Shown here one piece after another: positions 4,840-59,597 of a DNA stretch of 64,000 nucleotides. Below the pieces are notes generated by a model. That model saw only the letters and a list, made by a program, of their open reading frames with translations. It did no database searches and was not told the origin of the DNA. The DNA lies in assembly GCA_963668315.1 (NCBI GenBank), contig OY764216.1, positions 4,256,001 through 4,320,000 on the forward strand, written 5' to 3'. Origin of the DNA: Spirochaetia bacterium. Lineage in GTDB: Bacteria > Spirochaetota > Spirochaetia > DSM-2461. Within the stretch, counting starts at the first letter, position 1; each line of letters starts with the position of its first letter. The position numbers were made by a program, and so were the translations under genes.

Positions 4840-5934
4840 ATGTTGTATATTCTTAGGCATATGAAAAAAGAGGGAAAAATTAATCCTAACATTGAACTTT
4901 TACGGATTATATCGATTCTTGCTCTTGTTCTCTACCATGTTGCTTGTATGGGAGAAAGAAACAGTCACCTGGAAGAGCTTTTTCTTTACATTGCCGACAG
5001 GGGTTGGATGGGAACAGATATGTTTCTCGTTATAGCGGGCTATTTCTTCTATCGATCTTTTCTTCATACATATGAAGGAAATATATATTCATTCCTAAAA
5101 AGCCGTTTTTTTCGAATAGTCCCCTCCTATTTCCTCTTTGTTATTTTATACTTAACGATCGGATTATTTATTGAAAGGAAGGTAGGAAATACTTTTATAT
5201 TACCCAATGCTTATTGGCTTTATTTCCTTACATTTACGGCGAATATCCCCATGGCCATGGGCAATTGGAGCGGTGTTGCCCTGGAAGGTTTATTTGGGAT
5301 TTCCCTCCTTGTACAACTTTACTTAATTTTTCTCTTGATATTTTCCATAAGTAAAGACAAAAACAACCTTAAGAAAATACTGCTTATAATAGAAACGGTC
5401 GTGCTTATCAGCCGTTTCATTCCTTTGCTTAAAAACACAGCATGGTTCAGCTATTTTTTCACATTGACTAGAATGGACGGTTTCATTTTCGGGATTCTTT
5501 TGGCGGTTCTATATGAGGATAAGCAAGCTAAGGAACTGCTTATCCGACTAAAAACGAAAATTCTTCTCATTTCGTTTTTAGCGTTATTATCAACAGCCCC
5601 TTTTACAGGGATATTATCAGTTAACCACAGCAATACTTCCTGCCTGGCTTTTCCCCTTATAGGACTGTTCTTTTCCGCTCTACTGAACTATATTCTTACC
5701 TGGAGAATAAGGATTCCCCAGTTCTACGCGGGAGATTTTGTCTATTCCGTTTATCTTGTCAAACTCCCGTTAATATATATTGTTCTACGTTTTTTGGATC
5801 ATCTTCCCAATATAACACATATACCCTTCATCTCTGTTATAGCATCTCTGATATTCTGTATAGCCTGGGGAGCAGGATTAAGCTTTATTCATAAACATAG
5901 CTGTAAGCTGATAAAAGGAATTAACAAAAAGTAA
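4840..5934 (+). CDS. Membrane acyltransferase (Acyl_transf_3/OafA-like)
   Basis: IELLRIISILALVLYH, GWMGTDMFLVIAGY and FLKSRFFRIVP motifs; multi-TM; stop is 3 nt before the PKS start. Confidence 0.8.
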   Translation: MLYILRHMKKEGKINPNIELLRIISILALVLYHVACMGERNSHLEELFLYIADRGWMGTDMFLVIAGYFFYRSFLHTYEGNIYSFLKSRFFRIVPSYFLFVILYLTIGLFIERKVGNTFILPNAYWLYFLTFTANIPMAMGNWSGVALEGLFGISLLVQLYLIFLLIFSISKDKNNLKKILLIIETVVLISRFIPLLKNTAWFSYFFTLTRMDGFIFGILLAVLYEDKQAKELLIRLKTKILLISFLALLSTAPFTGILSVNHSNTSCLAFPLIGLFFSALLNYILTWRIRIPQFYAGDFVYSVYLVKLPLIYIVLRFLDHLPNITHIPFISVIASLIFCIAWGAGLSFIHKHSCKLIKGINKK

Positions 5935-5937
5935 CAT

Positions 5938-8900
5938 ATGAAAGATCGAAATTACTATGAAAGTTTGGAAGGCGCCATCGCCGTAATCGGAATGTCTGGA
6001 GCTTTCTCCAAATCGAAAGACATTAATGAATACTGGCAAAACATCCTTGCAGGCAGAGAATGTATTGATGATCTGACCGCTGAAGAGTTACAGGCCGCCG
6101 GAATACCCCAGGAACTTTCCGATAATCCCCTTTATGTGCGTCGGACCGCCGGCCTGGAATCGGCCAAGGAGTTTGACCCTGCCTTTTTTGGATATACCCC
6201 TGCGGAAGCCCGGCTTATGGATCCCCAGCACCGGCTTTTCCTGGAACACTCCTGGAAGTGTCTGGAAGACGGAAATATTATACCCGATCATTACGACGGT
6301 CTTATTGGTGTTTTCGGCGGATGCAGCCAGAATAATTATCTCTTAAAAAACCTCATTTATAGCGATCAGGCGGATAAAGCCGGTGCCTTTCAGATAATGA
6401 TCGGTAACGACAAGGATTATCTGACGACCAAAGTTTCCTACAAACTGAACCTCAAGGGCCCCAGCATTACCATGCAGACTGCCTGTTCCACATCCCTTAC
6501 GGCCATTCAGCAGGGATGCCTCTCTCTGCTCAATTACCAAAGTGATATGGCTCTGTGCGGGGGCGCTTCCGTCAATGTACCCTACAGGGGAGGCTACCTT
6601 TATCAGGACGGGATGATTTTTTCTCCCGATGGACATTGCCGCGCCTTTGACAAGGATGCAAACGGAACGGTTTTCGGTGACGGTGTAGGAGTTGTCCTTC
6701 TTAAGAGATTTGAAGATGCCCTAGAGGACGGAGATCTAATTCATGCCATAATCCGCGGGTCGGCGATTAATAACGACGGATCGGAAAAGGTCGGATATAC
6801 GGCTCCCGGTGTTAAGGCCCAAGCCGAAGTCGTCGCCACCGCCCTGGCAGTGGCTGATGTATCGGCAGATACAATCGGTTATGTTGAAACCCACGGCACA
6901 GGAACGCTTATGGGTGACCCCATCGAACTGGCGGCCCTGACAGAAGCCTTTCGTATGTCTACCGAGGAAAAAAACTACTGCCACATTGGATCGGCAAAAC
7001 CCAATATAGGCCATCTTGATGCGGCGGCAGGCGTCGCCAGTTTCATCAAAGCCGTCATGGTTCTCAAAACAGGGACTATACCGCCCTTGACAAACTTCAC
7101 ATCCCCCAATCCGGCATTAAACATAGAAGAGACTCCTTTTACCATAACTTCCACCCCCGTAAAATGGGATACGGAAGTGATACCCCGCCGAGCCGGAGTA
7201 AGCGCTTTAGGAGTAGGAGGAACGAATGTTCATCTGGTACTGGAGGAATATACTCCTTCGAAAGAACCTTCACCGGAACCGGGTGATAAGCCCAATCTTC
7301 TCGTTTTCTCCGCTAAATCAGAGGAATCCCTGACTAGACAGAAGGAACTTTTCTCTACGTTCCTGAAAAAAAAGGATATCTCCCTGCCTTCCCTGGCCTA
7401 TACGCTCCAGAAAAAACGGGTACCCTTCCCCTATCGGGACTTTCTGGTCACAGACGGAAAGGGTGAATATGACGAAAGTACATTCATAAATAAAAAGTCC
7501 CTTCCCTGCAACGGTTCGCCCGAAATTGCGTTTATATTCACCGGTCAGGGAAGTCAATATCCTAATATGGGAAAAAGTCTTTATGAATCGGTACCCTTCA
7601 TTAAAAAAATCATGGATCATGGTTTTTCTATTCTGGAACGAACCCATAATCTACCCCTCAAAGAAATTATCTACCCTGAAGGCTCCGCTTCCCTTAAGGA
7701 AAGCGAAATGAAACTTATGCAGACGACCTATACACAGCCAGCTTTGTTTCTTTTGGAATACGCCCTGGCCAGATATCTGATAATACTCGGTTTACAGCCG
7801 GCCTATCTTCTCGGCCATAGCCTGGGAGAGTACACCGCCGCCTGCCTGAGCGGGATTTTCACATTCGAAGATGCCCTGTCTCTCGTTGCGGAGCGGGGAC
7901 GGATCATGCAGACGGCACCAAAGGGTTCCATGATAAGCATCCCCCTTTCCCGTAACGCGATTGAATCCATGATTACCGGTGATCAGCTTCAGGTATCTGT
8001 CATTAACGCCCCGGATCGCTGTGTTGTATCCGGATCGGACGAGGCGGTGGACCTGTTTCAAAAAGAACTGACGGAAAAGGATATCCGCCACTCCCGTTTA
8101 AAGACCAGCCATGCTTATCACTCTTTTCTCATGGATAGCATACTGGATGAGTTCGCCTCAAGCTTTTCGTCCGTGACCTTTCATAAACCGGAGATTCCGA
8201 TTATCACCAACCAGTCCACAGAATCTTTCGGGTCGGAAAATATGGAAAGTGCTGAATACTGGGTAGATCAGCTCCGTCAACCGGTTGATTTTGATAAGGG
8301 GATTTCTCTTCTTCTCAAGAATAAAAACGTTACCCTGGTAGAAGTCGGACCCGGAAATACACTGATAACCCTAGCAAAGCTCAATCCTGATATGAAGGGA
8401 GATAATCTCTGCCTCCCTACGGTAAGAAACCCTAAACAGCAAACTCCGGACCATACCTTTTTCCTCACGGCTCTTGGAAAACTCTGGCAGAAAGGCCATT
8501 CTCTGCATTGGGATGAATTCTACGGTGAAAGGAAGCCCGAATATATCCGTATCCCCACCTATGAATTCGATAACAGAAGCTACTGGATAGAAGGGATAAA
8601 AAGCAAGAAATCCCCCCTTCCAATTGAGGAGACCGAGGAAAATTATATCGAAAAAAGGGAAGAACTGACGGTAAAAGAGAAGGTTCTTCATGTCTGGAGT
8701 GAAATCTTCGGCAACGATGATATCGGCGAAACGGATAATTTTTATGATATGGGAGGGCACTCCGTCCTGGCGACGCAGCTGCTTTCCAGAATAAACGAAA
8801 CCTTTAATCTGGAAATCGGCATGGGAGCCCTGCTCATGGAGCCGACACCGGCTAATTCCCTTGCTCTAGTGGAAGAACAGTTGCCCCGAAAAAAGCCCAC

Positions 8901-9771
8901 AGAAGTCCAATCTCCTTCTTCTCCGAAAGAGAAAGTCCTGCCCATGATGTTTCCCGTACAGAAGGGAGATCCTGAGAAAAAACCTCTTTTCATGGTGGCT
9001 GGTATGTACTTTAACCGGTATGATCATGAATCAGAGGAAGAGGGGCAGAGGAAATACGAAGAGGATTACTTCCGCTACTTCAGCACCCTGGTCAAAAACA
9101 TCGGAACGAGCCAACCAATATATGGTTTTCGACCAAAGGGGATTTTCCTTAATGAAAAACCCCATAAAAATGTTAAAGCAATGGCGGAGTCTTATATTAC
9201 AGAAATGAAAAAGATTCAGCCCGAAGGGCCTTATCTGATAGGAGGGGAATGTATCGGAGGTATTATTACTTACGAAATGGCTATGCAATTACAAGGACAG
9301 GGAGAGGAGGTCAAACACCTTATACTGATAGATACGTTCTATCCCAGGGCTAAAGCCATGTTTCGGGATGCTATTCGAGTAACATTATGGAGGTTTAAAG
9401 ACGAATTTATTACACCTCTGAAAAACAAGGAAAAATCCTTCATTAACCGTCTGTTAACCGTAATTAATCACTTGCAATTGTTTTTATTTCCCATAGGAAA
9501 AAAACAGAAAAATTTAAAACAGGTACAATACAGTAATGTGGCTTATATGTATCGGTTAATGAGTTATTCTCTTAAATTGTACGATAAAAAAAATATAACC
9601 CTTCTCGTGAATCAAGAGTGGAGCGATGACATCAGCCCCACCCTCAATTGGAAGAAAAAGCATATATTAAACGTAAATCTAATAACCGTTCCCGGAACTC
9701 ATGTTTCCTGTTTAACGGATTACGGACATATAACGGGCAAACACATAAGAGATATAATTGATAATGATTAA
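5938..9771 (+). CDS. Single-module type I PKS: KS-AT-ACP-TE
   Basis: KS QTACSTS, HGTGT and NIGH; AT GQGSQ, GHSLG and HAYH; ACP GGHS; TE-like domain with GECIG and C-terminal GTH. Confidence 0.93.
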   Translation: MKDRNYYESLEGAIAVIGMSGAFSKSKDINEYWQNILAGRECIDDLTAEELQAAGIPQELSDNPLYVRRTAGLESAKEFDPAFFGYTPAEARLMDPQHRLFLEHSWKCLEDGNIIPDHYDGLIGVFGGCSQNNYLLKNLIYSDQADKAGAFQIMIGNDKDYLTTKVSYKLNLKGPSITMQTACSTSLTAIQQGCLSLLNYQSDMALCGGASVNVPYRGGYLYQDGMIFSPDGHCRAFDKDANGTVFGDGVGVVLLKRFEDALEDGDLIHAIIRGSAINNDGSEKVGYTAPGVKAQAEVVATALAVADVSADTIGYVETHGTGTLMGDPIELAALTEAFRMSTEEKNYCHIGSAKPNIGHLDAAAGVASFIKAVMVLKTGTIPPLTNFTSPNPALNIEETPFTITSTPVKWDTEVIPRRAGVSALGVGGTNVHLVLEEYTPSKEPSPEPGDKPNLLVFSAKSEESLTRQKELFSTFLKKKDISLPSLAYTLQKKRVPFPYRDFLVTDGKGEYDESTFINKKSLPCNGSPEIAFIFTGQGSQYPNMGKSLYESVPFIKKIMDHGFSILERTHNLPLKEIIYPEGSASLKESEMKLMQTTYTQPALFLLEYALARYLIILGLQPAYLLGHSLGEYTAACLSGIFTFEDALSLVAERGRIMQTAPKGSMISIPLSRNAIESMITGDQLQVSVINAPDRCVVSGSDEAVDLFQKELTEKDIRHSRLKTSHAYHSFLMDSILDEFASSFSSVTFHKPEIPIITNQSTESFGSENMESAEYWVDQLRQPVDFDKGISLLLKNKNVTLVEVGPGNTLITLAKLNPDMKGDNLCLPTVRNPKQQTPDHTFFLTALGKLWQKGHSLHWDEFYGERKPEYIRIPTYEFDNRSYWIEGIKSKKSPLPIEETEENYIEKREELTVKEKVLHVWSEIFGNDDIGETDNFYDMGGHSVLATQLLSRINETFNLEIGMGALLMEPTPANSLALVEEQLPRKKPTEVQSPSSPKEKVLPMMFPVQKGDPEKKPLFMVAGMYFNRYDHESEEEGQRKYEEDYFRYFSTLVKNIGTSQPIYGFRPKGIFLNEKPHKNVKAMAESYITEMKKIQPEGPYLIGGECIGGIITYEMAMQLQGQGEEVKHLILIDTFYPRAKAMFRDAIRVTLWRFKDEFITPLKNKEKSFINRLLTVINHLQLFLFPIGKKQKNLKQVQYSNVAYMYRLMSYSLKLYDKKNITLLVNQEWSDDISPTLNWKKKHILNVNLITVPGTHVSCLTDYGHITGKHIRDIIDND

Positions 9772-10014
9772 TCAGCCAGCCAGGCGTCCTTCGATATAGC
9801 GAACCATCTTGTCCACGGAACCGAAGTTGTCACGGACCATATCTTCCGTTTCCACTTCGAATCCGTGGGTATTTTTCATATATGCCGATATCTCTACCAG
9901 ACCGAAAGAATCAATAATCCCCTCATCGATGAGCGATTTATCGTGGGGGATCTCTTCTAATTCCACCATAAAATTGTCCGCGATAAATTCGAGTAAACCT
10001 TTTTTAATTTCCAT
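9772..10014 (-). CDS. Stand-alone acyl carrier protein
   Basis: 80 aa, acidic, GIIDSFG phosphopantetheine site, DNFGSV tail. Confidence 0.9.
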   Translation of the reverse strand: MEIKKGLLEFIADNFMVELEEIPHDKSLIDEGIIDSFGLVEISAYMKNTHGFEVETEDMVRDNFGSVDKMVRYIEGRLAG

Positions 10015-10054: not shown

Positions 10055-12028
10055 TTAATTCTCATGAATTTCCACCCGTTTAAGTGATTCATCCAGACTT
10101 TCATGTCGGGGATTATCCATGGCCCGGCTGATCATCTGAGTGGAAAGAATGAAAGTAATGAGCATATTGTCCCTATAGCCTATCTGCTTTGGCATGCGGC
10201 GGGAAAACTTATTTATCAGCCGATTCACATATTTCTTATCGAATACTCCGGCCATATCCACCGCTTCCTCCGAAAGAAAGGGAGCCGCTTCGTCGGTCAG
10301 ACGTCCGTCGGAGAAGAAAGATTTCAGATCCGGCGCCTGATAAGGCTGCTTGGGCCTGTCTATAATGGAAGGGGGCACCACATCCCGGAAAGCATCGCGA
10401 AGGATGTGCTTCTGAGAAAATCCCTTAAGTTTGTAGTCGTCAGGATAGGCGAAGGCCTTTTCCACCAGACGGTGATCAAGGAAGGGATAGCGTCCCTCAA
10501 CACTGTGTCCCATGGACATCCGGTCCCCCTGGGAAGAGAGAAGGTAGCCGGGCAACAGGGTTTTCATCTCTAGATACTGCTCCTTCTGCATAAGGGACCA
10601 TTTCCCATAATCCGCAGGGAGGGTCTCTTTCAGGTTGGCCAGCAGTTCCTCCTTCTCATAGGTGACGGCATAATCCTTGTTCAGGTAGTTCCCCAGAATC
10701 CGGTTGTTATTCATGCGGATATTCAGGCCCATCAGATCGTTGTCGAAATCATCAAGGAAATCCTCGTAGTACATCTTCATGAAACCCATCTGGGTCTTGT
10801 CCTTGTAGTGGGAGAGGTGGGGATAAAGCTGGCCCAGCAGCTTTTCCACAGGGGCGTTATCCCTGTTGTCCCTCCACATCTGCAGCATCCGTACTTCCTT
10901 GAAAACATCGTAGCCGCAGAGAATCTCGTCGGCCGCTTCACCGGTCAAAACGACCTTGATGTTCTCTTCCCTCACCTTTCGGCTCAACAGGTAGAGAGGT
11001 ACTGGAGCGGTACGGAAGACGGGCCGTTCAAAGTGATAAGCCGCTTCGCCCAGGTAACTATTGATCATAGTGTAATCAATCTTCAAATCGATATGCTCGG
11101 AATTCAGCCGTTCCACCATCTCCTGCTGATAGACCGACTCATCATAGCCTTTGTCCGTAAAGGAGACAGCAAATGTCTTGAACCGGTCCTTATTGTGGAT
11201 TTTCGTCAGATGGGCAATAACCGAGGAGTCGATTCCCCCGGAAAGATAATTCCCTACGGGCACGTCACTTCTAAGCCGCAGGCGCACGGCGTCGCTTAGA
11301 AGCTCCACCATCTCCTCCCGGGCCTGTTCGTAATCCGGCGTCGGCAAGTCGTAATTCTCTCCCAGCTGATAATAGGTAAACCGGCGGGGCTCTTCCCCGA
11401 TGCGGTATTCAGCATAATCTCCGGCGGGCAGGGAAATAATATCGTTGTAGACGGTCCGGTCTCCCAGAGTGTTCCAGAGAAGACCATGCTCGTAGAGATT
11501 CTTCATGTGAAAGGAACGGTGGTATCCGGGAATCTGATCAAAGCACTTGAGTTCAGAGGCGAAATAGAAAACCCCCATATGGTCCAGCACATAGAGAGGA
11601 CGGATACCGTAGCGGTCCCGGGCCACAGTCAGAACCTTCTCCTTTTTATCCCAAAGGAGGATGGCGAACTGTCCGTTAAAGGAGGAAAAGGCGGCGGGAC
11701 CGTCCAGTTCAAAGGCCTTGAGAACTATCTCCGTGTCGCAGGTCGTCTTGAATTGAACACCCCGCTTCTCCATCTCCGCCCTAAGCTCAATGAAGTTAAA
11801 AACCTCCCCGTTAAAGGAGATGACGTATCTTCCCGTCGACATAGGCTGATGCCCCCCGGAGAGATCCTGAATGGAAAGCCGGGCATGGCCCAGGGCGACA
11901 TGGGAATCGGTGTAGAGCCCCCATCCGTCGGGTCCCCGGTGGCCTAGAACGGAAATCATCTTCTTCAAGGTGTCCTTCTGTTCTTCTCGCTCTCTATAAT
12001 ATCCTAAAAATCCGGTTATTCCGCACAT
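10055..12028 (-). CDS. asnB: Asparagine synthase-family glutamine amidotransferase
   Basis: MCGI N-terminal Cys, HRGPD, FNGE, LSGGIDS, TGEAADE and PFLDH motifs. Confidence 0.9.
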   Translation of the reverse strand: MCGITGFLGYYREREEQKDTLKKMISVLGHRGPDGWGLYTDSHVALGHARLSIQDLSGGHQPMSTGRYVISFNGEVFNFIELRAEMEKRGVQFKTTCDTEIVLKAFELDGPAAFSSFNGQFAILLWDKKEKVLTVARDRYGIRPLYVLDHMGVFYFASELKCFDQIPGYHRSFHMKNLYEHGLLWNTLGDRTVYNDIISLPAGDYAEYRIGEEPRRFTYYQLGENYDLPTPDYEQAREEMVELLSDAVRLRLRSDVPVGNYLSGGIDSSVIAHLTKIHNKDRFKTFAVSFTDKGYDESVYQQEMVERLNSEHIDLKIDYTMINSYLGEAAYHFERPVFRTAPVPLYLLSRKVREENIKVVLTGEAADEILCGYDVFKEVRMLQMWRDNRDNAPVEKLLGQLYPHLSHYKDKTQMGFMKMYYEDFLDDFDNDLMGLNIRMNNNRILGNYLNKDYAVTYEKEELLANLKETLPADYGKWSLMQKEQYLEMKTLLPGYLLSSQGDRMSMGHSVEGRYPFLDHRLVEKAFAYPDDYKLKGFSQKHILRDAFRDVVPPSIIDRPKQPYQAPDLKSFFSDGRLTDEAAPFLSEEAVDMAGVFDKKYVNRLINKFSRRMPKQIGYRDNMLITFILSTQMISRAMDNPRHESLDESLKRVEIHEN

Positions 12029-23912: not shown

Positions 23913-23920
23913 GACTAATC

Positions 23921-38002: not shown

Positions 38003-38016
38003 ACGGCTTCCTCCTG

Positions 38017-40102: not shown

Positions 40103-40130
40103 AAAACCTCCTAAAACGTTTTATTTCCAT

Positions 40131-40619: not shown

Positions 40620-40652
40620 ATCCGTCCGAAAATAAATTATGATTTATGGGTT

Positions 40653-40694
40653 GGGATAGCCGTTCTTGCAGGAACAATAGGCTATCCCTTTTTT
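40653..40694 (+). terminator. Intrinsic-terminator-like hairpin near the transposon end
   Basis: GGGATAGCC...GGCTATCCC stem followed by TTTTTT. Confidence 0.55.
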
Positions 40695-44534: not shown

Positions 44535-44688
44535 TAATTCAAAAAAGTGGGATAGGATTATTTCATCCTGGGAAAGAAGCGTTTTAAGTCAAAAGGGATT
44601 TTGCAATCAAAATAATCTGCCCTTATCCACTTTTCATTATTGGAGGCGAAAGCTTGATAAAGAAGCCTATAGAAAACATCTTCTATGA
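44535..44688 (+). pseudogene. IS66 TnpA accessory-gene remnant
   Basis: KKWDRIISSWERSVLSQKGFCNQNNLPLSTFHYWRRKL fits the W..I..W..S.LS...FC......F.YWRRKL pattern. Confidence 0.65.
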
Positions 44689-49682: not shown

Positions 49683-49759
49683 TTACTCTGTCCTTGATTC
49701 CTTGTAGCTTGAAGTTATTATCCAACAATTTACCACATTCTTCATATAAAAAACATTTT

Positions 49760-51004: not shown

Positions 51005-52354
51005 CTAAAAATAACTTACCCCTGGCATACCCAGATGTAAAGCCATACGTATTAACAGTACTAACACAATGGCCATAATGAGTAAAATGGTAATAATCAG
51101 GTCATCCAGTAAATGGGCAATATTCTCCCGTAAAAACCCCCAATTCATGACAATATAAGTTGGAATATCATTAAGGGATATGACTATGATAACTCCCAAT
51201 AAGCCAAAGAAATGATAAACCAAAGGAGTCAGAATAATCATATAAAGAAACTTAACAAAATTTCCTATAGATTCATACTGTGGTTTCCCAAATACATACA
51301 GAGAATTACTATTAGACACATAGAGAACATAGGGCCACATCCCAATTGCCAGGATAGGAAGCATCCAGGCAGCGGCATAATATCTATCATCATAGAGCAG
51401 AGTGATTACATAATCTCCAAAACATGTCAGAAGAATGGTTGGAATTGCCGTTAAAAGGAGCAGAATTCGTCTTGGTTTTACAACCATCTTCCGGTATTCA
51501 CCTCTAGGTAGATCACGGTAGCGACTAAATAGAGGGAATAAAACCATACTAGAGAGTCTTCCGACAATCTGCTTTATAAGTTCAGAGAACATAATGGCAA
51601 TATTGAAAAATCCTAAAGCTTTAAAAGTCAATAACTTCCCTAATAAGATTTTATCTATTTGACTAGCCACAAATGTTAATGCAGTTGAAAGAAAAATCCA
51701 TTTCCCAAAATGTAATATCTCACTAAAGTACTGTTTTTCGATTGTAAGTCTTGGTTTGATATCTCCTTTTAAAAGAAAATGACTGAAAAACAGTCGTAGA
51801 GATGAAGAAACCAATGAAATGATGACCAAAGACCATATGCTCCTATAGTAATAGGCAAAAAGTATACCAGCAAGAGCGCCAAAGATTTGAGCAGATAAAT
51901 CGATACAAGATAAAGCACCTTGTTTTAATTCCTTCCTGTACAATAATAATTTGACAGAGTTAAACCCTTGAAGAGATGCTATAGCACCTATAAAGATGAT
52001 AATCCCCTTTAATTGGGGCTCATGATAAAAATAAGCAACAGGAACTGAGATAATCAATGCAATCGCAGTTATTATTCCCCCCCTTACCACTTGTAGTGTC
52101 CAGACAGTATTAATAAACGGTTCCTTATCTGTCTCACCACTTTTTATAACCGAAGGGCCAAGACCGATATCTGAAAACAAATTAATTCCTTGAATAAATA
52201 CATTGGCGATAGAGACTATCCCAAAATATTCGGGAACAAGTAAACGGGTTAAAATTAAGTTATTAGCAAGACGAATTACCTGTCCCAAACCATAACCGAA
52301 CAAGGTAAAAAAAGAAGCTTCTAACGCCAGCCTTTTATGATTTTTACTTTCCAC
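51005..52354 (-). CDS. wzx: Oligosaccharide flippase (Wzx), copy 1
   Basis: LTRLLVPEYFG, FSDIGLG and QIDKILLGK; multi-TM. Confidence 0.88.
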   Translation of the reverse strand: MESKNHKRLALEASFFTLFGYGLGQVIRLANNLILTRLLVPEYFGIVSIANVFIQGINLFSDIGLGPSVIKSGETDKEPFINTVWTLQVVRGGIITAIALIISVPVAYFYHEPQLKGIIIFIGAIASLQGFNSVKLLLYRKELKQGALSCIDLSAQIFGALAGILFAYYYRSIWSLVIISLVSSSLRLFFSHFLLKGDIKPRLTIEKQYFSEILHFGKWIFLSTALTFVASQIDKILLGKLLTFKALGFFNIAIMFSELIKQIVGRLSSMVLFPLFSRYRDLPRGEYRKMVVKPRRILLLLTAIPTILLTCFGDYVITLLYDDRYYAAAWMLPILAIGMWPYVLYVSNSNSLYVFGKPQYESIGNFVKFLYMIILTPLVYHFFGLLGVIIVISLNDIPTYIVMNWGFLRENIAHLLDDLIITILLIMAIVLVLLIRMALHLGMPGVSYF

Positions 52355-52393
52355 TAAATTTCCTTTTATTATTTATTCTATTAATTGATGATT

Positions 52394-53713
52394 TTACACC
52401 GCTAAAAGATTTCTCTTATTATTAACTAAATACTCACAATAACTAACTAATGCGCCCGAGCATAATGTATAAATAACATTCATCATCGCATTCACAAGGC
52501 AATCATAAGCGAAAAGTATGATAATCAAACATAGAACAATACTTTCAAGACAAAAATGATTTTTCTTCATATTTCTTATGATTGTAAGAGGACCAGCAAG
52601 AATAAGAGTAAACTGACTCAACAACCCAAGTAAACCTTGGGAAGCATATGAAATAATCCATAAAGAATCGACAACCACAGCTCGGTTTGTTAATGGGTTG
52701 ACTCCATTTATCCCACGAGCCCATCGGCTCCAACCCCAAAATACTTGTCCTAAACCCATACTTTTTAATAAAACCTCTTCTGAATTCAGCCGGAACAATA
52801 GTGACTCGATTCGTTCTTCATCAAAAAAGCGTGACATCAAAATAGAAAGATCATTAACAGTAACTAAACTCTGAATTCTCAGAAGAAAATAAACGGGGAC
52901 TATAATTATTAGTAATACAAAGAATTTCTCTGTAGTCTTTCTTTTATATATAAACCAAGAAAATAGTCCCAATATACCTAAAAAGAGAGCTCCCTTTGAT
53001 TTGGACATTACTAGAGTTGTAAAACAGACAGCAAATACGATAAGAAGAGGTAAGTGAAACATTTTTCGAATGTTCTTATCTCTCCACATCCAAAAAGAAA
53101 CAACAGCTCCGGCCATTAACCAAAAAGACACCATTAATCCATGGGTCATAAAAACAATGGGCCTATATCCGCCATATCTGAAATGCTGTATCCAGCTATG
53201 TTGAAAAAAACCATATATTTTAAGATTCAGCTGAGGACTCATCCTTAATTCATACTGGCATAGAGGAACATATATCAACACCCCAGCCAAGATGTAGCGA
53301 ATTAGCAATTTCAAGTCCTCTTCTTTCCTGAAATATTTTCGTCCTGTAACGAAAGAGACTCCCCATGAAAAAAATAAGGCTAACCCGTTAACAAAACCTT
53401 CATAAGCTCCAAAGCCATTGATGACTGATGAGATAATGGGACTAATAAAACAATAAAGAATCAAAATTCTATCAAAGTTATTTTTTTTATATTTGACCCT
53501 CTTTTTCGATAATGCTTCCCCAATCAAAATTCCCAAAGCAATGGCGACTTCCTTGTTATAAGTAATAACAGGCAGATCTATTGAGAGTTTGGGCAAAAAA
53601 CAGATGCCCCCGATATAGGAGAGAAGTACGGCAACTCTTGCATCTTTCTTCTGAAACCAGTAAATAGTGAGAGGCACCCAAAAGATCAGCATAAATTTTG
53701 CAAAAATCATCAT
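52394..53713 (-). CDS. Wzy polymerase/O-antigen ligase-family membrane protein
   Basis: Multi-TM; RYGGYRP...H, SKSKGA and DSLWI...GLLG; lies between two flippases. Confidence 0.75.
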   Translation of the reverse strand: MMIFAKFMLIFWVPLTIYWFQKKDARVAVLLSYIGGICFLPKLSIDLPVITYNKEVAIALGILIGEALSKKRVKYKKNNFDRILILYCFISPIISSVINGFGAYEGFVNGLALFFSWGVSFVTGRKYFRKEEDLKLLIRYILAGVLIYVPLCQYELRMSPQLNLKIYGFFQHSWIQHFRYGGYRPIVFMTHGLMVSFWLMAGAVVSFWMWRDKNIRKMFHLPLLIVFAVCFTTLVMSKSKGALFLGILGLFSWFIYKRKTTEKFFVLLIIIVPVYFLLRIQSLVTVNDLSILMSRFFDEERIESLLFRLNSEEVLLKSMGLGQVFWGWSRWARGINGVNPLTNRAVVVDSLWIISYASQGLLGLLSQFTLILAGPLTIIRNMKKNHFCLESIVLCLIIILFAYDCLVNAMMNVIYTLCSGALVSYCEYLVNNKRNLLAV

Positions 53714-53764
53714 ATCTTTCTTATGCCTCTTCCTATACCCGGTTCATTTTATTACTTAATACTA

Positions 53765-55114
53765 TCATAAAAACTGCGCCCCTGGCAGTCCCCAATGGAA
53801 CATAAGACGTACAAGTATAAAAAGTCCAATAATAATAGCCAGAAATACAGTAGAGATCAAATCGTCGAACAAGAGGGATATTCTTTCCTTTAAATATCCC
53901 CAGTTCAAAACAATATATGGTGGCAGATCATTAAGAGCGATGGCGATAATAACACCTATCAGCCCGAAATACCGATAAGCAAAAGGAAGGAGAATCACCA
54001 TATAGAGAAATTTAACAAGATTTCCATAAGCATGGTATTGGGCTTTTCCCAAAACATAAAGGGAATTGCTGTTGGAAATGTACAAGGCATAAGGCCACAT
54101 ACCCAAAGCCAAAACGGGGAGCATCCATGCGGCCGCTTTATATCTGTCGTCATAGAGAATAGTAATTAAAAAATCCCCGTAGCAGACCAGAAAAGCCGTA
54201 AGTATCCCAGTAAGAAGAAGAAGGATTCTCCGCGGTTTTTTGATCATTTCCCGGTAGTCCTTGCGTGACAGATGCTGGTATTTACTATAAAGAGGAAAAA
54301 GCACCATTCCGGAAAGCCTCTCTAAAACCTGTTTGATAAGTTCAGAAAACATAATGGCAATATTGAAGACCCCCAGGGTTTCAAAGGACAAAAGCTTTCC
54401 CAAAAGGATCTTGTCGGTTTGTCCAGCCACGAATGTCATGGAAGTGGCGAAAAAAATCCACTTTCCGAATTGCAATATTTCATTAATATATTTCTTTTCC
54501 AGAACGATACGAGGTTTTATATTTCCCTTAAGAATAAGATGACTACCCAAGAGTTCTAAAAGAGACCCGAAGAAAGCGGAAATAACAAGAGACCAGATCG
54601 TTCTAAAGTAATAAGCGATGGCGATTCCAATGACAGCAGTAATAATCTGAATAGCTAAATACATAAGAGACAGGATTCCCTGTTTTAACTCTTTATTATA
54701 CAGAGCCAGATTCGTGGAATTAAACCCTTCCAGAAGGGAAAAGGAACCTATGAAAATAATCATGCCAATAAGCTTTGGCTCATTGTAAAATTTAGCTACC
54801 GGAACAGCTATTAGGATAGAAATAACAGTAAGGATCACACCTCTTATGATTTGAATCGTCCAGACAGTATTGATAAATTCCTCATCATCGGTTTTATCGC
54901 TCCTTATAATAGAAGGACCTAACCCTATATCGGAAAAGAGATTTATCCCAACGATAAATACATTGGCGATAGAAACTATTCCAAAATACTCCGGAACAAG
55001 CAACCGGGTAAGAATCAGATTATTTACCAGTCTGATGACTTGAGAAGAACCGAACCCGAATAGTGTAAAGAAAGATGCCTCCAAAGCAATTCGTTTATTA
55101 GACTTTTGTTTCAT
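53765..55114 (-). CDS. wzx: Oligosaccharide flippase (Wzx), copy 2
   Basis: 449 aa, clearly paralogous to 51005-52354. Confidence 0.88.
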   Translation of the reverse strand: MKQKSNKRIALEASFFTLFGFGSSQVIRLVNNLILTRLLVPEYFGIVSIANVFIVGINLFSDIGLGPSIIRSDKTDDEEFINTVWTIQIIRGVILTVISILIAVPVAKFYNEPKLIGMIIFIGSFSLLEGFNSTNLALYNKELKQGILSLMYLAIQIITAVIGIAIAYYFRTIWSLVISAFFGSLLELLGSHLILKGNIKPRIVLEKKYINEILQFGKWIFFATSMTFVAGQTDKILLGKLLSFETLGVFNIAIMFSELIKQVLERLSGMVLFPLYSKYQHLSRKDYREMIKKPRRILLLLTGILTAFLVCYGDFLITILYDDRYKAAAWMLPVLALGMWPYALYISNSNSLYVLGKAQYHAYGNLVKFLYMVILLPFAYRYFGLIGVIIAIALNDLPPYIVLNWGYLKERISLLFDDLISTVFLAIIIGLFILVRLMFHWGLPGAQFL

Positions 55115-55132: not shown

Positions 55133-58100
55133 CTATCGGGCAACTTTCATCCTTCTTTGTTTTTGTTTTTCCACTCTCGAAAGGATATGAGAGCGCGGCT
55201 CACCGCCTCCTCCTGCCCGTAGATATCCGGCCAGACTCTCCACAGTGGTGTAACGGAACATCATGGCAACGGGAATTTCCTCTTTTGCCAATTTTCCCAG
55301 TTCCCGATGCATTTCCATAATCTGAAGAGAGGTTCCGCCCAAATCAAAAAAATTATCTCTGGGACCGATAGGTACATTCAGAATCCTCTCCCAAATTTGG
55401 GCAATTTGCTTTTCCATCTCTCCTTCAATCTTTTCTTTAACCAAGTTCTGACTCTTCATCATAGTCAAATCTCTGGGCAGTTTCTTTCTGTCAAGTTTTC
55501 CATTATCACTCAGTGGCAGCTCTTCCAGAGAAAAGATAAGGGAGGGAACCATATATTTAGGAGACGTCTTTAGAATATGGCTTTTTAAAACCTCAATATT
55601 TAGTTCTCCGTCTTCGGGCACAACATAAGCGATAAGCCGTTGATCAGTACCGAAATCACCGTCCACTATGACGGCCGACGTTTTTACCCCCGGATGGTTG
55701 TTCAGGGTCGATTCAATCTCTCCCAGTTCGATACGCTGTCCGTGCAGCTGAACCTGATTATCGCTTCTTCCGAAATAGAGAACATCTCCGTCCATCGTCC
55801 ACTGTGCCAGATCACCGGAAAGATACATCTTACGGTTGCTATCAAGAAAGTGATCGACAAAAACCTTTTCCGTTAAATCTCCCCTCTTATAGTATCCCCT
55901 GGCCAACCCGGAACCGGCCAGATAAAGATCTCCCAGAACCCCTGGAGGAAGGGGACGCAAACTCTTATCCAAAACATAAACCTGAGTATCGGATACGGGT
56001 TTTCCGATAGGGACGACGGAACATTCCTTCTCACAATTCCAGTAAGTTATGAAAATGGTCGCCTCCGTTGGTCCGTAAAGGTTATGGAGTCTGGCTTGGG
56101 GAAACTTCCTGTAAAAATCATTTACGACCCCTGCCGGCAGTGCTTCTCCGCAGCAAAGCACATCCCCTATCATGGGGCAGCTTTCGGGATTCGTCGTATT
56201 CAGAAAAACATTTAAGAGGGAAGGGACAAAATGAAGAATGGATATATTCTCCCTTTGAATTATATCGGTCAGATAGCTATTGTCCAGATGTCCCTCAGGC
56301 TCAGCGATAACCAGAGGAGCGCCCGTTGTCAGGGGAAGCCAGAACTCCATACCTGAAACATCAAAATTATAGGGTGTCTTTAATAGGGTTTTTCTTTCCG
56401 TTCCGAAGTGGAATGTCCTGTTCATCCACAGGATCCGGTCAGTCAGCCCTCCATGCTCCACCTCAACACCCTTGGGTTTCCCCGTTGAGCCGGACGTATA
56501 AAAAAGGTAGGCTCGTGTCGAGGAAGCCACAGCCCCATCCGGATTTCCGGGATCGTCCCCCTCTATAAGGCGGCTATCGTCCAGAGACAGGATATTGACT
56601 TCGGGGAAATCTGCCCTGAGAATCTCTTCATACGCTTTCATTGACAGAAGAAGAGATAGGCCGGTATCCTCTACAAGATATTTTTTGTATTCTCTGGGAT
56701 GGGTCGGTTCAATCGGCATATAGGATGCCCCCGTTTTGAGGATTCCCAGCATACCAACCACCATCTCTAAGGACCTTTCCAGGGAAAGCCCTATGACCGC
56801 TTCCGGCTGTGCGCCCAATCGGATCAATTCTTCGGCGAGTATATTTGCCCGGCGATTCAATTCTCCATAGGAGAGGGATTCACCCCTGAAGCGAAGAGCT
56901 GTTTTCATCGGTTGCTGACTCACTTGCTCTTCAAAATATTGATGTACTCCTTTGAACTCCACCGGCGGGTATGAAGTATTGTTCCAGTCATAACATACTT
57001 TCTGTCTCCACACCTCAGAAACCCACACCGTTTGGGAGAGGGGAAAATCGACACCCTGAACAATTTGTTCCATAATGGTTAAAAAGGAGGCAGGGAAAAG
57101 TTCTGCCCTCTCTTTTGTAAAAAGAGCCTCATTAAACTCCAGCTCCCAATGATATATATCGTCTCTTTCCCAGAAATAAAAAAACAAGTCCAGTTGAGAA
57201 CCATGACCGGGAATAGCAAGCGGTTCAACAGTCAGGCCGTCCAGAGTCAATTCCATGGGGTATTCATTTGTAAAGCCGACCTGAAAAAGGGGGTTGTACT
57301 TCCTGTCTAACTCCCCTTTCACCGCTTTGATAACCTGAAGATAGGGAACAAATTGGTTCCTGTGAACAAGAAGCATCTTTCTTCGAACCTGTTTTAGCAG
57401 ATCGATGAACGTCATATCTTCGGAAAAATCAATTACCAAAGGAAGGATATTCATAAAACACCCGAAAATATCCTCGAAGATTGGCTTACCCCGATTTGTG
57501 CGCGGTACACCTACGGCAATTCTATCCTGCCCGGAATATTTATGAAGCAACAGATAATACGCCGCAAGAAGAACGAGATAAGGAGACGTGCTTTCTTTTT
57601 CACAGTACCTGTGCAATGCAATGGAAAGGTCTGATGAAAATTCACCTGCAAGACGAGAGCCTGTTGTCCGGGAAAAAGAAGGTCTTTCGAAATCAGTTGT
57701 CAGAGTCAGGGGATCGGAAACAAGATTCATTCTTTGCCAAAAGTCGTTCATTTTCCCGTAATCGTCGGAACCGGAAAAGTCCTCCATACTCCTTACATAA
57801 CACTCATAGGAGACCGCCTCCCTCAGAGAAGGCTCCGCCCCCCGGATAAGACTATTATAGATAAGGCTAAATTCCTCTCCGAAAATATCCTTGGAACGAA
57901 GATCCACAATCAGGTGATGAAACACGAAAAGAAGACGTCTCTTGCTGCCGTCTTTATAGAGAATAAAACGGAAAAGCGGTCCCTTTTCTATATAAAAGGG
58001 AGTGCAGATATCCTCTTCCAACCCTTCGGCAGAATACTCTTTTTCAGTGAGTTCGAAATACAGGTCGTCGTATACGATCTGTTCCGGTCCTTCCGTCCCC

Positions 58101-58294
58101 ATAATGAACCTGGCACGGAGCATTTCATGTCTATTAACAAGCAAATCAAGGGTCTTTCGAACCGCATCGGTATTCAAAGAACCTTTAATCTCAAATAGAG
58201 AGGCCATATTGTATGCGGAACCCTCCGGTTCCTGTTGGTACTGAAGCCAAAACTGCTTCTGTACGGCAGAAAGGTTTAACCGTTTCTCATGCAT
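55133..58294 (-). CDS. NRPS module C-A-T (atypical specificity code)
   Basis: C HHLIVDL; A YTSGSTGKPKG, YGPTE and NGKLD; T LGGTS; code DVMHLCLIFK. Likely start ATG 58294 overlapping the upstream stop (track 58327). Confidence 0.92.
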   Translation of the reverse strand: MHEKRLNLSAVQKQFWLQYQQEPEGSAYNMASLFEIKGSLNTDAVRKTLDLLVNRHEMLRARFIMGTEGPEQIVYDDLYFELTEKEYSAEGLEEDICTPFYIEKGPLFRFILYKDGSKRRLLFVFHHLIVDLRSKDIFGEEFSLIYNSLIRGAEPSLREAVSYECYVRSMEDFSGSDDYGKMNDFWQRMNLVSDPLTLTTDFERPSFSRTTGSRLAGEFSSDLSIALHRYCEKESTSPYLVLLAAYYLLLHKYSGQDRIAVGVPRTNRGKPIFEDIFGCFMNILPLVIDFSEDMTFIDLLKQVRRKMLLVHRNQFVPYLQVIKAVKGELDRKYNPLFQVGFTNEYPMELTLDGLTVEPLAIPGHGSQLDLFFYFWERDDIYHWELEFNEALFTKERAELFPASFLTIMEQIVQGVDFPLSQTVWVSEVWRQKVCYDWNNTSYPPVEFKGVHQYFEEQVSQQPMKTALRFRGESLSYGELNRRANILAEELIRLGAQPEAVIGLSLERSLEMVVGMLGILKTGASYMPIEPTHPREYKKYLVEDTGLSLLLSMKAYEEILRADFPEVNILSLDDSRLIEGDDPGNPDGAVASSTRAYLFYTSGSTGKPKGVEVEHGGLTDRILWMNRTFHFGTERKTLLKTPYNFDVSGMEFWLPLTTGAPLVIAEPEGHLDNSYLTDIIQRENISILHFVPSLLNVFLNTTNPESCPMIGDVLCCGEALPAGVVNDFYRKFPQARLHNLYGPTEATIFITYWNCEKECSVVPIGKPVSDTQVYVLDKSLRPLPPGVLGDLYLAGSGLARGYYKRGDLTEKVFVDHFLDSNRKMYLSGDLAQWTMDGDVLYFGRSDNQVQLHGQRIELGEIESTLNNHPGVKTSAVIVDGDFGTDQRLIAYVVPEDGELNIEVLKSHILKTSPKYMVPSLIFSLEELPLSDNGKLDRKKLPRDLTMMKSQNLVKEKIEGEMEKQIAQIWERILNVPIGPRDNFFDLGGTSLQIMEMHRELGKLAKEEIPVAMMFRYTTVESLAGYLRAGGGGEPRSHILSRVEKQKQRRMKVAR

Positions 58295-59597
58295 TGGTAA
58301 ACTGCTCCACATCATAACGTCCGACAAAAATGGGAACCTTCCCTTCGGGAGAACCGGATTTTTCCAGAAGATTCGTCAGATATGTGCGGTCATCCCACCC
58401 CTGGCTATGGCATAATCCCAGAATACCCATGTTCTCTCTGCTGCCGACTTGCGCTCTTAACTTGATTTTAGGAATAAAGGCTTTAATCTCGTCATCGACC
58501 TGATAAAGATTCACTAATTTTTTGGGATCACCATGGAGCAGGACCGATTCGTCCAAAGACATGTAGAGATCAAAGAGAACGGAATATGGCTGGATACAGA
58601 CCAATCCGTAAGAGGTAAAAGGACTGATTTCCCGATCCGACGTGTCCAGTCCACCTATCAAATACTGCTGGAGCTGCTTCTTCCCTACCCGGGGCAGCTT
58701 GTAATACTCCTTGCCATCGATCACTTCACCGGCATAATCGCAGGTGAATTCATTCATAAGGTCTCCCGTCAGGATAATGACCTTTTCCCGGTCAATTCTT
58801 TCATCCCCATCAACCAGTGTTTTGATATTCCTGGCCAGAAGAATATTCAGGGCGGCGCAATGAACGTTAAAATCACGAAAATCCTGACAACTGTAGGGGG
58901 CTTCTCCCATGGCGTCCAGAATATCTTCCCGGGAAGCGGGGAAAGTTTTATGGGTTATTCCGATATGCCCGGCAATCTTTATTGATTTTTCCGAATCTTC
59001 CGATTTACCCAGATCTAGGGTACACGCGATGGGAGAATCAAGATAAGCCGCGGCTTTAGAGGCGATGATTGTACTATCCAGACCTCCTGAAAGGGCAATG
59101 AAAACCGTCCAACCTTCTTTTTCCTTCCGGCGGATAGACTGAAATACAAGGTTCAAACGATGGTTAAGTTCATCCTGAAAGTCCTTAACATCCTCCGTTA
59201 GGGCCCCCCAGTCAAAGGCATCCCTGTTCAATGTGCCCTGAGGTTCTACAACAGGAGCCAAAGACCGAAGCTTAGTTAAACCATGCGAAGAGAGTCGTAC
59301 TTTATAACCGGCAGGCAAGGAGCAGATCTTTGTATTCCAATGAAAAAGATCAGTAAATCTTCGCGAAAAATGGAATTTTCCCTCGCCGTCCCGACAGTAG
59401 AAAAGTTTATGGATACCCAAGGGATCCCTTACACCTTCATAAGTCCCTTCATCAATCCTCCTGAGACAGGCGAACTGTCCGTAGATTGTCCCCTCATCAT
59501 AATGATCCAATGAGTCCCTGAACAGATCTGCATCTCTGTCTATGATAAATGTATTATGACCCCACTTTTCTATAATAAAAGGAGTATTATCTTTCAC
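58287..59597 (-). CDS. Asparagine-synthase-related protein lacking the Cys1 glutaminase start
   Basis: GQFA, RDPLGIHKLFY, ALSGGLDST (PP-loop) and LTGDLMNE; no MCG N-terminus; 436 aa. Confidence 0.75.
   Translation of the reverse strand: MKDNTPFIIEKWGHNTFIIDRDADLFRDSLDHYDEGTIYGQFACLRRIDEGTYEGVRDPLGIHKLFYCRDGEGKFHFSRRFTDLFHWNTKICSLPAGYKVRLSSHGLTKLRSLAPVVEPQGTLNRDAFDWGALTEDVKDFQDELNHRLNLVFQSIRRKEKEGWTVFIALSGGLDSTIIASKAAAYLDSPIACTLDLGKSEDSEKSIKIAGHIGITHKTFPASREDILDAMGEAPYSCQDFRDFNVHCAALNILLARNIKTLVDGDERIDREKVIILTGDLMNEFTCDYAGEVIDGKEYYKLPRVGKKQLQQYLIGGLDTSDREISPFTSYGLVCIQPYSVLFDLYMSLDESVLLHGDPKKLVNLYQVDDEIKAFIPKIKLRAQVGSRENMGILGLCHSQGWDDRTYLTNLLEKSGSPEGKVPIFVGRYDVEQFTNA

Follow-up and report, generated by a model that had tools for sequence, protein, structure and literature searches.

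The window analysed here is a stretch of 64,000 nucleotides in which five multidomain thiotemplate proteins, a free acyl carrier protein (ACP), three AsnB-type genes and four membrane acyltransferase domains lie in tight same-strand runs with glycan genes of the Wzx/Wzy type. The initial annotation had placed the thiotemplate proteins and the free ACP in apparent operons with glycan genes, and all of the open reading frames that it named were recovered with the same coordinates, domains and tight same-strand arrangement. Intergenic gaps measure 1-62 bp in the run from 21089 to 9772 and -41 to 115 bp in that from 59597 to 44683, and these short same-strand gaps make it plausible that both runs are operons. 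A promoter and terminator scan of positions 9000-21500 gave a signal no better than chance. The locus extends past 4840..59597, with a priming transferase at about -6290 at one end and a second MBOAT/AlgX-like pair (~+79 to +81 kb) at about +81341 at the other, and is divided at 29.3-44.6 kb by an insertion-sequence nest. Mutator, IS3-like and Mu-like elements (30095..44020) make up this nest, which carries an RgpF-like gene (32897-33787, + strand) and, beside it, the second of two stand-alone AT3 genes (33837-34853, + strand); the latter lies in DNA of ~30% GC and adjoins no NRPS gene. A lasso-peptide cluster is also present within the locus. The 5.6-Mb genome holds only two Pfam matches to condensation (C) domains, both within the locus. 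A single public contig is identical to the window over 4700-24600 and may be where the DNA comes from.

The polyketide synthase (PKS; 5938..9771, + strand) is a non-reducing KS-AT-ACP-TE module by its Pfam domains and active-site motifs. Its KS Cys/His/His residues are intact, its AT lies in cis with intact GHSLG and HAYH motifs, and its TE nucleophile is Cys (GECIG). AT3a, an AT3 membrane acyltransferase (4840..5934, + strand; PF01757, 79.8 bits), ends 3 bp before the PKS, bearing out the annotated abutment of the two. On the minus strand lie two core members of the cassette described below, the free carrier ACP1 (9772..10014; PF00550) and, 40 bp away, AsnB1 (10055..12028), a glutamine-dependent amide synthetase (TIGR01536, 455 bits versus a cut-off of 267) with its N-terminal Cys (Cys1) present. 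The same strand carries a C-A-T module (12030..15146), whose C motif HHILFDLRS is of the starter clade and whose A code DVWHMSLIDK is predicted to specify Ser, and an A-T-TE protein (15209..17638) with a Ser-type TE and an A code, DILQLGMVWK, predicted to specify Gly. A second C-A-T module (55133..58327, - strand; start likely 58294) has the C motif HHLIVDLRS and the code DVMHLCLIFK, from which no substrate was assignable. Beside it lie an AsnB-like synthetase domain that lacks the glutaminase Cys (58287..59597, - strand), rare in that it recurs in 2 of 40 other loci, and a putative exported alpha/beta-hydrolase (59723..60580, + strand; GFSMGG, Asp, His). Both C domains of the window (HHxxxDLRS) are members of an N-terminal starter clade spanning six phyla. 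No stand-alone AT was found in the window by Pfam or in the cassette maps, and the domain that follows AsnB1/ACP1 is a C domain.

Glycan genes are interleaved with these modules. A GT2 glycosyltransferase (17671..18588, - strand; PF00535) lies in the first run, and 21456..24655 (+ strand) encodes a GT2, a CysE-like LbH acyltransferase, another GT2 and a WecG/TagA glycosyltransferase. The second run, on the minus strand, comprises a GT61 with a CysE-like LbH acyltransferase (44683..46400), the amidotransferase AsnB2 (46516..48456), two GT4 glycosyltransferases (48486..50983), and two Wzx flippases (PF13440) on either side of a Wzy-like polymerase (52394-53713) within 51005..55114. The best subfamily match of AsnB2, to the XrtA/PEP-CTERM type, falls below cut-off, and we take the enzyme to be a likely uronamide-forming glycan enzyme. 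One locus holds Wzx/Wzy pathway genes in the form of three PF13440 matches, a PF02397 match (the priming transferase) and GT2, GT4 and WecG genes. The Wzy-like reading frame has 9 predicted TM helices and no Pfam or NCBIfam match, and among its Atlas neighbours at 0.99 is a cluster in which 67% of the proteins carry Wzy_C. Co-polymerase and export proteins were not found within the locus; a 402-aa gene that flanks relatives' loci, with a homologue at C1:3066008, may have a Wzz-like role.

Of the four membrane acyl-transfer domains that had been annotated, the MBOAT and both stand-alone AT3 proteins score above Pfam cut-offs, and the fourth, a fused domain, is probably AT3-like, judged by motif, TM helices and hhalign. 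The MBOAT (19686..21089, - strand; PF03062) ends in FIYFQF, an instance of the FXYXXF acyl-shuttle motif defined for MBOATs in the accessible part of PMC12148441. Separated from it by 6 bp, an SGNH-fold protein (18615..19679, - strand) has one N-terminal TM helix and the triad S93/D331/H333; in its family S93 and H333 are invariant, D331 is near-invariant, and G-x-S and D-x-H are kept. This protein had no Pfam or NCBIfam match and its profile none among PDB sequences, so that only a fold search gave matches: its model (pLDDT 97) retrieved SGNH/GDSL folds including PatB. The pair thus has the motif and the adjacent membrane-anchored Ser-Asp-His protein of the PatAB/AlgIJ type. It had been read as the delivery route of an elaborated Dlt-like pathway, in which the MBOAT would take a peptide-ketide from a carrier onto its C-terminal tyrosine and pass it through the SGNH protein to the polymer outside the membrane. 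Its place at the head of the NRPS-gene run and the features just described count in favour of such a route. However, among 42 genomes that carry the cassette or are related, the SGNH family was found in 1, an MBOAT lies near 5 of 40 cassettes, and every Dlt equivalog model scored far below cut-off (DltA, NF003417, 270-285 bits versus 476; DltB, TIGR04091, 176 versus 375; DltC, NF003464, 35.9 versus 68). The window's A domains sit in C-A-T or A-T-TE modules, unlike stand-alone DltA, and non-Dlt MBOAT/SGNH pairs are described that operate without a carrier and are evidently fed by acyl-CoA (PMC12148441, accessible part). We therefore regard this route as improbable; both proteins are accessory, the SGNH protein lying outside the conserved cassette, and the pair is likely a separate AlgI/PatA-type system for O-acylation of the window's glycan.

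The fused domain belongs to an acyl-adenylating domain-carrier-AT3-like membrane fusion (A-T-AT3; 24665..27307, - strand), a self-contained family. AT3 acyltransferases have about ten TM helices and an R/K-X10-H motif in helix 1. The fused membrane domain itself has no Pfam match; it has 8 predicted TM helices and an R-X10-H motif whose R539 and H550 are invariant across 58 sequences, and hhalign aligned it with AT3 at a probability of 66% (E 5.8e-5, 86 columns; controls 0.7% and 0.1%). PF01757 is annotated on 11 of 72 homologues of the fusion. A fold search with the full-length model returned adenylation-domain matches only and did not address the membrane part. The membrane domain occurs in 1 of 401 genomes of the host phylum, and natural C-A-T-AT3-like fusions account for 3 of 72 matches, P0117 among them with a Gly-like code. 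The protein is likely a third, self-contained carrier-to-membrane acylation unit. Because the fusion is self-contained and plasmid homologues of its A-T part stand alone, the five proteins need not all belong to the single NRPS-PKS assembly line annotated.

The window's core genes belong to a cassette found in six bacterial phyla, with the composition AsnB–ACP–WbuX-like–C-A(Ser/Gly)-T–non-reducing KS-AT-ACP-TE. Of 51 GTDB loci, 37 were taken to genome searches; set aside were L045 and L046, duplicates of G001, and 12 loci with canonical (DG/DA-type) C domains, and the tallies omit G094 (HHxxxDG). ACP1 recurs in 30 of 40 other loci, an AsnB1 homologue at least 45% identical in 28 and the WbuX-like gene in 25. 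The last had no tblastn match in the host genome and, since it is missing and the insertion-sequence nest splits the locus, the window's copy of the cassette may be altered. Of the 39 genomes whose A domain could be read, 29 have a Ser code; a Gly code was found in 20 of 40 as the union of three readings, since the regex reading was noisy and Gly domains escaped the BLAST reading at E 1e-25. Space for KR/DH is absent from the PKS save in G082 and G084.

We find that the cassette is linked with glycan loci beyond chance. PF02397 or PF13440 lies within ~40 kb of 20 of the 40 cassette loci located by the C-domain query, ~ten-fold over the 2.0 expected under a rough uniform model, with related genomes entering the tallies as non-independent samples. 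The proportion is 17/37 when G000, G001 and G005, which had been chosen through wzy, are set aside, and 3/24 (raw, without contig-length correction) for other C-domain clusters in the same genomes. Of the 25 genomes covered by a stretch of at least 35 kb, that stretch includes Wzx, Wzc, Wza or a priming glycosyltransferase in 21, the flanks having been picked partly with marker positions known. A minority of the homologous NRPS genes stand apart from glycan genes; of the NRPS, wzx and MBOAT synteny suggested as a check, the flippase/priming-transferase part was recovered, and the MBOAT part in 5 of 40 cassettes. Polysaccharide loci could also be insertion hot spots that gathered an unrelated cluster. 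The insertion-sequence nest, the lasso-peptide cluster and the proximity of some control clusters to the markers are in keeping with such mere co-location, but the enrichment, the spread over six phyla, a C-domain tree that branches largely by phylum and the 1-62 bp gaps to glycan genes make it very improbable.

In the relatives G001, G005, G021 and G045 the cassette lies within polysaccharide loci but in differing arrangements, and in several Bacteroidota the cassette comes immediately after wza-wzc. Host loci vary in their flippases, polymerases and glycosyltransferases, which fits a tailoring cassette that is portable, and one related wzx/wzy locus (G010) has no NRPS or PKS within 100 kb. 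Acyl-transfer candidates near the 40 cassettes include AT3 (11), LbH (16), MBOAT (5) and exported hydrolases (14), none of them universal. AT3a orthologues occur in 4 of 41 genomes, host included, all adjoining cassette genes and none elsewhere.

We propose that the cassette makes a short Gly/Ser-malonyl acyl unit with an amide cap and transfers it onto a polysaccharide or its precursor instead of releasing it, a reading to which we give an even chance. A dicarboxyl group (malonyl-type) on ACP1 would be amidated by AsnB1, as GbnC acts on GbnA; the DL-type starter C domain would couple the acyl group to Ser or Gly; and the non-reducing KS-AT-ACP would add one malonate, giving a beta-keto thioester. 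In the cytoplasm or at the inner membrane, no later than flipping, the terminal TE (Cys-type here), the PKS-linked AT3 or an LbH transferase might then pass the unit to an amine or hydroxyl group of a sugar, the weakest of the four steps. The operon-like interleaving with glycosyltransferase, wzx and wzy genes, the restriction of AT3a orthologues to cassettes and the stereotyped chemistry count in favour, while the want of a single conserved transferase and the several cassettes away from glycan genes count against. Of the annotated peptide-ketide decoration of the glycan, then, the Ser/Gly codes, the non-reducing PKS and the enrichment in glycan loci stand as observed, whereas its installation is something we infer.

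Cassettes away from glycan genes bear on two further explanations. In the well-covered G069, G072, G075 and G083, no Wzx, Wzc, Wza or priming glycosyltransferase was found nearby, and ABC/MacB-type transport genes adjoin the cassette in the first two. Of 23 metagenome stretches that were 10 kb or longer, only 8 gave a glycan match (BLAST against a reference set); L107, L121, L129 and L133 have housekeeping-gene flanks and L141 an RND pump. Such copies would suit a diffusible small molecule, in the simplest case an N-acyl tetramate (pyrrolidine-2,4-dione) or a pyrrolinone akin to it, made when the TE closes acyl-Gly/Ser-malonyl to a lactam, the position in polysaccharide operons then reflecting co-regulation with biofilm or capsule production. 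A conserved methyltransferase near 11 of 40 loci is what O-methylated tetramates, for which althiomycin is a precedent, would need. A starter C-A-T followed by KS-T-TE with lactam formation by the TE is also the logic proposed for reutericyclin and mutanocyclin (PMC6694145, accessible part). Against this stand the same-strand embedding between flippases and glycosyltransferases in six phyla, AT3 partners that occur nowhere but next to the cassette, a TE gene among glycosyltransferase genes (a stand-alone TE ~20 kb from the NRPS genes in G095) and, given an ABC ATPase in just 4 of 40 stretches by single-query BLAST, no conserved exporter; we consider the small molecule less probable than the glycan reading but its leading rival. 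Alternatively, the unit could go to another envelope component (a lipid, glycolipid anchor or glycoprotein) or give a free amine for protein anchoring. The four cassettes without Wzx keep AT3, MBOAT or PMT-type GT-C neighbours, and exosortase genes lie near several Desulfobacterota copies, yet neither lipid-synthesis nor sortase genes are conserved, and the majority of well-covered copies lie within Wzx/Wza/Wzc operons, which leaves this destination unlikely.

NRPS-PKS lines are taken to make diffusible metabolites, and where carriers are known to serve the decoration of envelope polymers, it is mainly with single residues, as in Dlt. No description of the cassette was found in the full-text literature searched, mostly non-subscription papers without supplements, and as a route of surface decoration it would be new for bacterial surfaces. 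With slightly less confidence than for the glycan reading itself, we suggest a widespread, undescribed NRPS-PKS class that installs a covalent peptide-ketide substituent on Wzx/Wzy polysaccharides, with an amide (or amidine) starter from AsnB/ACP/WbuX-like enzymes, a C-domain clade recognisable by its HHxxxDL signature, and larger multi-module versions in Bacteroidales. If so, a conserved multi-step thiotemplate cassette writing a peptide-ketide onto capsules or EPS would unite the NRPS-PKS and envelope-decoration fields. A set of cryptic gene clusters from anaerobic and marine bacteria would then be assigned a new role, and uncommon N-acyl substituents of glycans would gain a biosynthetic route. 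Were the product diffusible, the cassette would still be an uncharacterised, stereotyped small-molecule pathway linked to surface-polysaccharide operons in six phyla. Two carriers in culture, Desulfoluna spongiiphila AA1 and D. butyratoxydans MSL71, make the question directly accessible to experiment.

The cassette and its locus share features with several known systems. The window's MBOAT, with its shuttle motif fused to it as in non-Dlt MBOATs, and the adjacent SGNH protein resemble Dlt, PatAB and AlgIJ, but Dlt works with a single carrier and a single stand-alone A domain and involves neither condensation nor ketide extension (PMC12148441, accessible part), and the window's pair does not co-occur with the cassette elsewhere. 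The type B flagellin peptidylamido-glycan of Clostridioides difficile likewise has a short Gly-containing peptide amide-linked to an amino sugar, but the genes named for its locus are FemAB-like, ATP-grasp and cyclodeaminase (PMC5207245, PMC5207246). An NRPS in that locus found no support, no NRPS term occurring in either paper; a Roseobacter NRPS/PKS-glycosyltransferase cluster, considered as a precedent, is not described in the accessible text of PMC4062626, and no Roseobacter locus was among the C-domain matches. The asnB-acp-ligase-nadE operon of Sinorhizobium meliloti pSymB is matched by AsnB3-ACP2-ligase-NadE-like genes at +68 to +74 kb (NadE-like gene, 56.5% identical; AsnB1 and its AsnB, ~40%), but has no NRPS or PKS within the surrounding 31 kb, and the function of its ACP, SMb20651, is said to need further study (PMC5686131, accessible part). 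Reutericyclin and mutanocyclin synthesis (RtcN/MucD with MucE) shares a starter C-A-T followed by one non-reducing KS-carrier-TE module, with the TE proposed to close the lactam of an N-acyl tetramic acid; MucE is trans-AT and its product Leu-derived, fatty-acylated, acetylated and secreted (PMC6694145, accessible part), whereas the cassette has its AT in cis, Ser/Gly residues, an AsnB/ACP-derived starter and genes among Wzx/Wzy genes. Similar at the starter end are the amidated systems of gladiolin (GbnA/B/C) and the glutarimides (malonamyl-ACP), in which a dedicated ACP and a glutamine-dependent asparagine synthetase homologue head the assembly line, and for which the words condensation, NRPS and polysaccharide are absent from the source paper (bioRxiv 10.64898/2026.04.24.720606). 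In those systems a stand-alone AT loads the donor for a trans-AT KS (same source); the cassette, in contrast, has no stand-alone AT, a DL-type C domain as acceptor, usually a WbuX-like PP-loop enzyme next, and a place in a polysaccharide locus.

Searches with Pfam and NCBIfam confirmed the gene inventory of the initial annotation. One run (21089 to 9772) comprises genes for an MBOAT protein, an SGNH-like protein, GT2, A-T-TE, C-A-T, AsnB1 and the carrier protein ACP1, separated in that order by gaps of 6, 26, 32, 62, 1 and 40 bp. A second (59597 to 44683) comprises AsnB-like, C-A-T, wzx, wzy-like, wzx, two GT4 genes, AsnB2, LbH and GT61. As had been claimed, an AT3 membrane acyltransferase gene (AT3a) abuts the PKS gene, ending 3 bp upstream of it; the PKS and ACP1 genes are convergent. 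The two C-A-T modules are the only Pfam condensation matches in the genome, and a PPTase homologue lies outside the locus (C1:2026491-2026862). Alignment to conserved motifs gave the A-domain codes DVWHMSLIDK and DILQLGMVWK, of Ser and Gly type by established assignments, together with DVMHLCLIFK, for which there was no assignment. Both C domains carry HHxxxDLRS in place of HHxxxDG. The KS of the PKS retains Cys-His-His as well as NDKD/QTACSTS, presumably the marks of KS domains accepting aminoacyl chains, while its AT bears GHSLG and HAYH; KR and DH are absent from this PKS. Cys occupies the nucleophile position of its TE, a feature common to genomes G005, G045 and G072, which form one supported group with this TE, and to three further rows of the comparison.

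A wzy query matched 6 of 60 relatives. NRPS/PKS genes were present at three of the loci so found (G001, G005 and G021) and were not found in the 100 kb covered for G010; those of G014 and G018 were short contigs. G045, which came from the C-domain search, carries its cassette next to Wzx. The recurring cassette consists of AsnB1, ACP1, a WbuX-like PP-loop protein (345 aa; TIGR03573 at 143.8 bits, below the cut-off of 203), one or two C-A-T modules, and a KS-AT-ACP with its TE fused or separate. Within 10 to 80 kb of DNA from each of 40 other genomes, AsnB1 was near the cassette in 28, ACP1 in 30, the WbuX-like gene in 25 and KS in 32. The Ser code occurred in 29 of 39 genomes and the Gly code in 20 of 40. 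The WbuX-like gene was found neither in this genome nor in the 50 kb covered for G001, and both carry a glutaminase-less AsnB-like gene instead.

With the C-domain alignment as query, we retrieved 51 GTDB and 58 metagenome loci; cultured carriers include Desulfoluna spongiiphila AA1 and D. butyratoxydans MSL71. In a FastTree phylogeny, which is descriptive because its domains were picked with the same profile, 49 of 98 C domains formed one clade (SH-like 99) spanning Spirochaetota, Desulfobacterota, Bacteroidota, Planctomycetota, Myxococcota and Fibrobacterota, with a Gammaproteobacteria pair adjoining it. Clade members were N-terminal in 49/49 cases. In long Bacteroidales NRPSs the DL-type C domain always comes first and internal C domains are DG-type, thus marking the DL type as a starter domain. 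Separately, a single NRPS of another kind, about 1420 aa long, recurs in spirochaete relatives (L040 in G006, L042 in G010, L044 in G011, L036 in G019 and L037 in G052), surrounded by housekeeping or signalling genes and at a distance from glycan genes. Large multi-module NRPS-PKS systems whose first C domain is DL/DV-type were seen at Bacteroidales loci L065, L066, L076, L079 and L094 (G079, G080, G095, G096 and G097); in G079 and G095 they are followed by co-oriented PPTase, flippase-like, pyruvyltransferase and GT genes, which face wza-wzc.

Of 40 loci, 20 had a glycan marker, either the priming transferase PF02397 or the Wzx flippase PF13440, no more than about 40 kb away, compared to 2.0 expected from marker density in whole-genome searches. 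Without the three wzy-selected genomes, the count was 17 of 37, against 3 of 24 for other C-domain clusters of the same genomes. Many marker-less loci are short contigs or bear other markers, such as Wza/Wzc in G088, G089 and G090; in G079, G080, G095 and G096, priming GTs are found 49-63 kb away, on the far side of long NRPS genes. Among genomes with at least 35 kb of sequence covered, 21 of 25 had a core marker, a count whose flanks were partly picked with marker positions already known; the stretches covered for G069, G083, G072 and G075 had none. Of 23 metagenome stretches of 10 kb or more, only 8 gave a glycan match (BLAST against a reference set compiled for this analysis), and Pfam searches of 49 ORFs from 12 metagenome loci placed housekeeping neighbours at L107, L121, L129 and L133 and an RND pump at L141. 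Given marker enrichment on one side and these marker-less genomes and metagenome loci on the other, the cassette-glycan link is strong, yet not obligatory. At L129 a lone DL-type C-A-T gene (L129:10001-13200) stands directly upstream of saccharopine-dehydrogenase-like, decarboxylase, arginase-family and arginine decarboxylase genes, which suggests a polyamine link for this copy.

By analogy with GbnA/GbnC (bioRxiv 10.64898/2026.04.24.720606), AsnB1 likely amidates dicarboxyl-ACP1. The DL starter domain would then join the amidated group with Ser or Gly, and one malonate, left unreduced, would come from the PKS. Finally, the TE, or a linked AT3/LbH enzyme, would move the unit onto a glycan precursor, a step that, judged from gene and domain content, is our preferred reading at about even odds. 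Of the terminal elements seen, the TE was the most constant (G095 has it as a gene of its own, between wzc and WecG), and the two TEs of this genome may yield parallel products. The main rival has the TE lactamise the chain to an N-acyl tetramate, the route proposed for reutericyclin and mutanocyclin (PMC6694145); we consider this outcome rather unlikely here.

As candidates for transfer onto the glycan precursor, AT3 proteins of any type occurred near 11 of 40 cassettes and LbH proteins near 16 of 40; AT3a orthologues were present in 4 of 41 genomes, including this one, and always beside the cassette only. Delivery by the MBOAT/SGNH pair, as originally envisaged, failed co-inheritance, with MBOAT near 5 of 40 cassettes and the SGNH family in 1 of 42 genomes. 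The MBOAT C-terminus, FIYFQF, fits the FXYXXF tyrosine shuttle that PMC12148441 describes for PatA and DltX, and the adjacent protein has an SGNH fold with a catalytic triad. Near 14 of 40 cassettes there is a family of exported Ser-Asp-His hydrolases, a hint that some part of the product is encountered extracellularly. The 880-aa A-T-AT3 fusion (24665-27307, minus strand) has a predicted fold of adenylation domain, carrier and helical membrane domain, with moderate evidence that the last is AT3-like. Its family gave 72 matches, among them proteins from a cyanobacterium and Marinibactrum. Three matches carry a C domain at the N-terminus (one of them with a Gly-like code), demonstrating that such a membrane domain can be joined to an NRPS module. 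A-T homologues on plasmids are stand-alone. The fusion may by itself constitute a one-protein system for carrier-to-membrane acylation.

The genome is a single 5.62 Mb contig, on which the window (C1:4256001-4320000) has a GC content of 30-54% in 2-kb bins, compared to 51% for the genome; named close homologues are from Spirochaetales, for which reason the host is taken to be a spirochaete. The glycan locus extends past both window edges, with a priming sugar transferase at about -6290 and, on the right up to about +81341, a third Wzx, an LbH protein, GT2, AsnB3, an ATP-grasp protein, ACP2, a NadE-like protein, an acyl ligase and an AlgX-like/MBOAT pair. An IS nest occupies about 29.3-44.6 kb; the second AT3 lies inside it with an RgpF-like gene, so that no link between this AT3 and the NRPS genes is evident. 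The nest also holds (30095-44020) two apparently identical 397-aa Mutator transposases, several truncated Mutator and IS3-like copies, and a Mu-like transposase with an AAA partner. Related exported beta-helix-type proteins, possibly polysaccharide-modifying or lyase-like, are scattered through the locus (27434-29290, minus strand; 62921-64567, plus strand; C1:4330589-4332265), two of them with PF13229. Inside the locus is, in addition, a paeninodin-like lasso peptide cluster (462-632, minus strand; 859-4658; C1:4253499-4256401). Its 56-aa precursor has a YxxPxxxxxG...T leader and a core ending in Ser, and its genes encode a PqqD/RRE, a B2 peptidase, an ABC exporter, a nucleotidyltransferase, an HPr-like kinase and an AsnB-type cyclase. 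In G001, similar genes are found between its PKS and its priming transferase.

The system is not a member of the Dlt pathway to which the initial annotation had likened it; the MBOAT/SGNH pair belongs to the PatAB/AlgIJ type. The cassette would work like amidated-starter NRPS-PKS systems, but without a stand-alone AT. Beyond the window, a second module of AsnB3, ATP-grasp, ACP2, NadE-like and acyl ligase genes (C1:4324323-4330428; +68323 to +74428) is homologous to the S. meliloti pSymB asnB-acp-ligase-nadE operon. Like AsnB1-ACP1-WbuX-like, it pairs AsnB, ACP and a glutaminase-less PP-loop enzyme; it is also seen in polysaccharide loci of G005 and G010. Peptide-capped glycans are known, the C. 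difficile case naming ATP-grasp and FemAB-like genes (PMC5207245, PMC5207246). No description of the cassette or its C clade was found in the main texts of openly accessible papers. We tentatively propose, with slightly more doubt than confidence, that the cassette represents a new class of polysaccharide-decorating assembly line. This analysis yielded its range across phyla, the starter clade and the negative MBOAT result.
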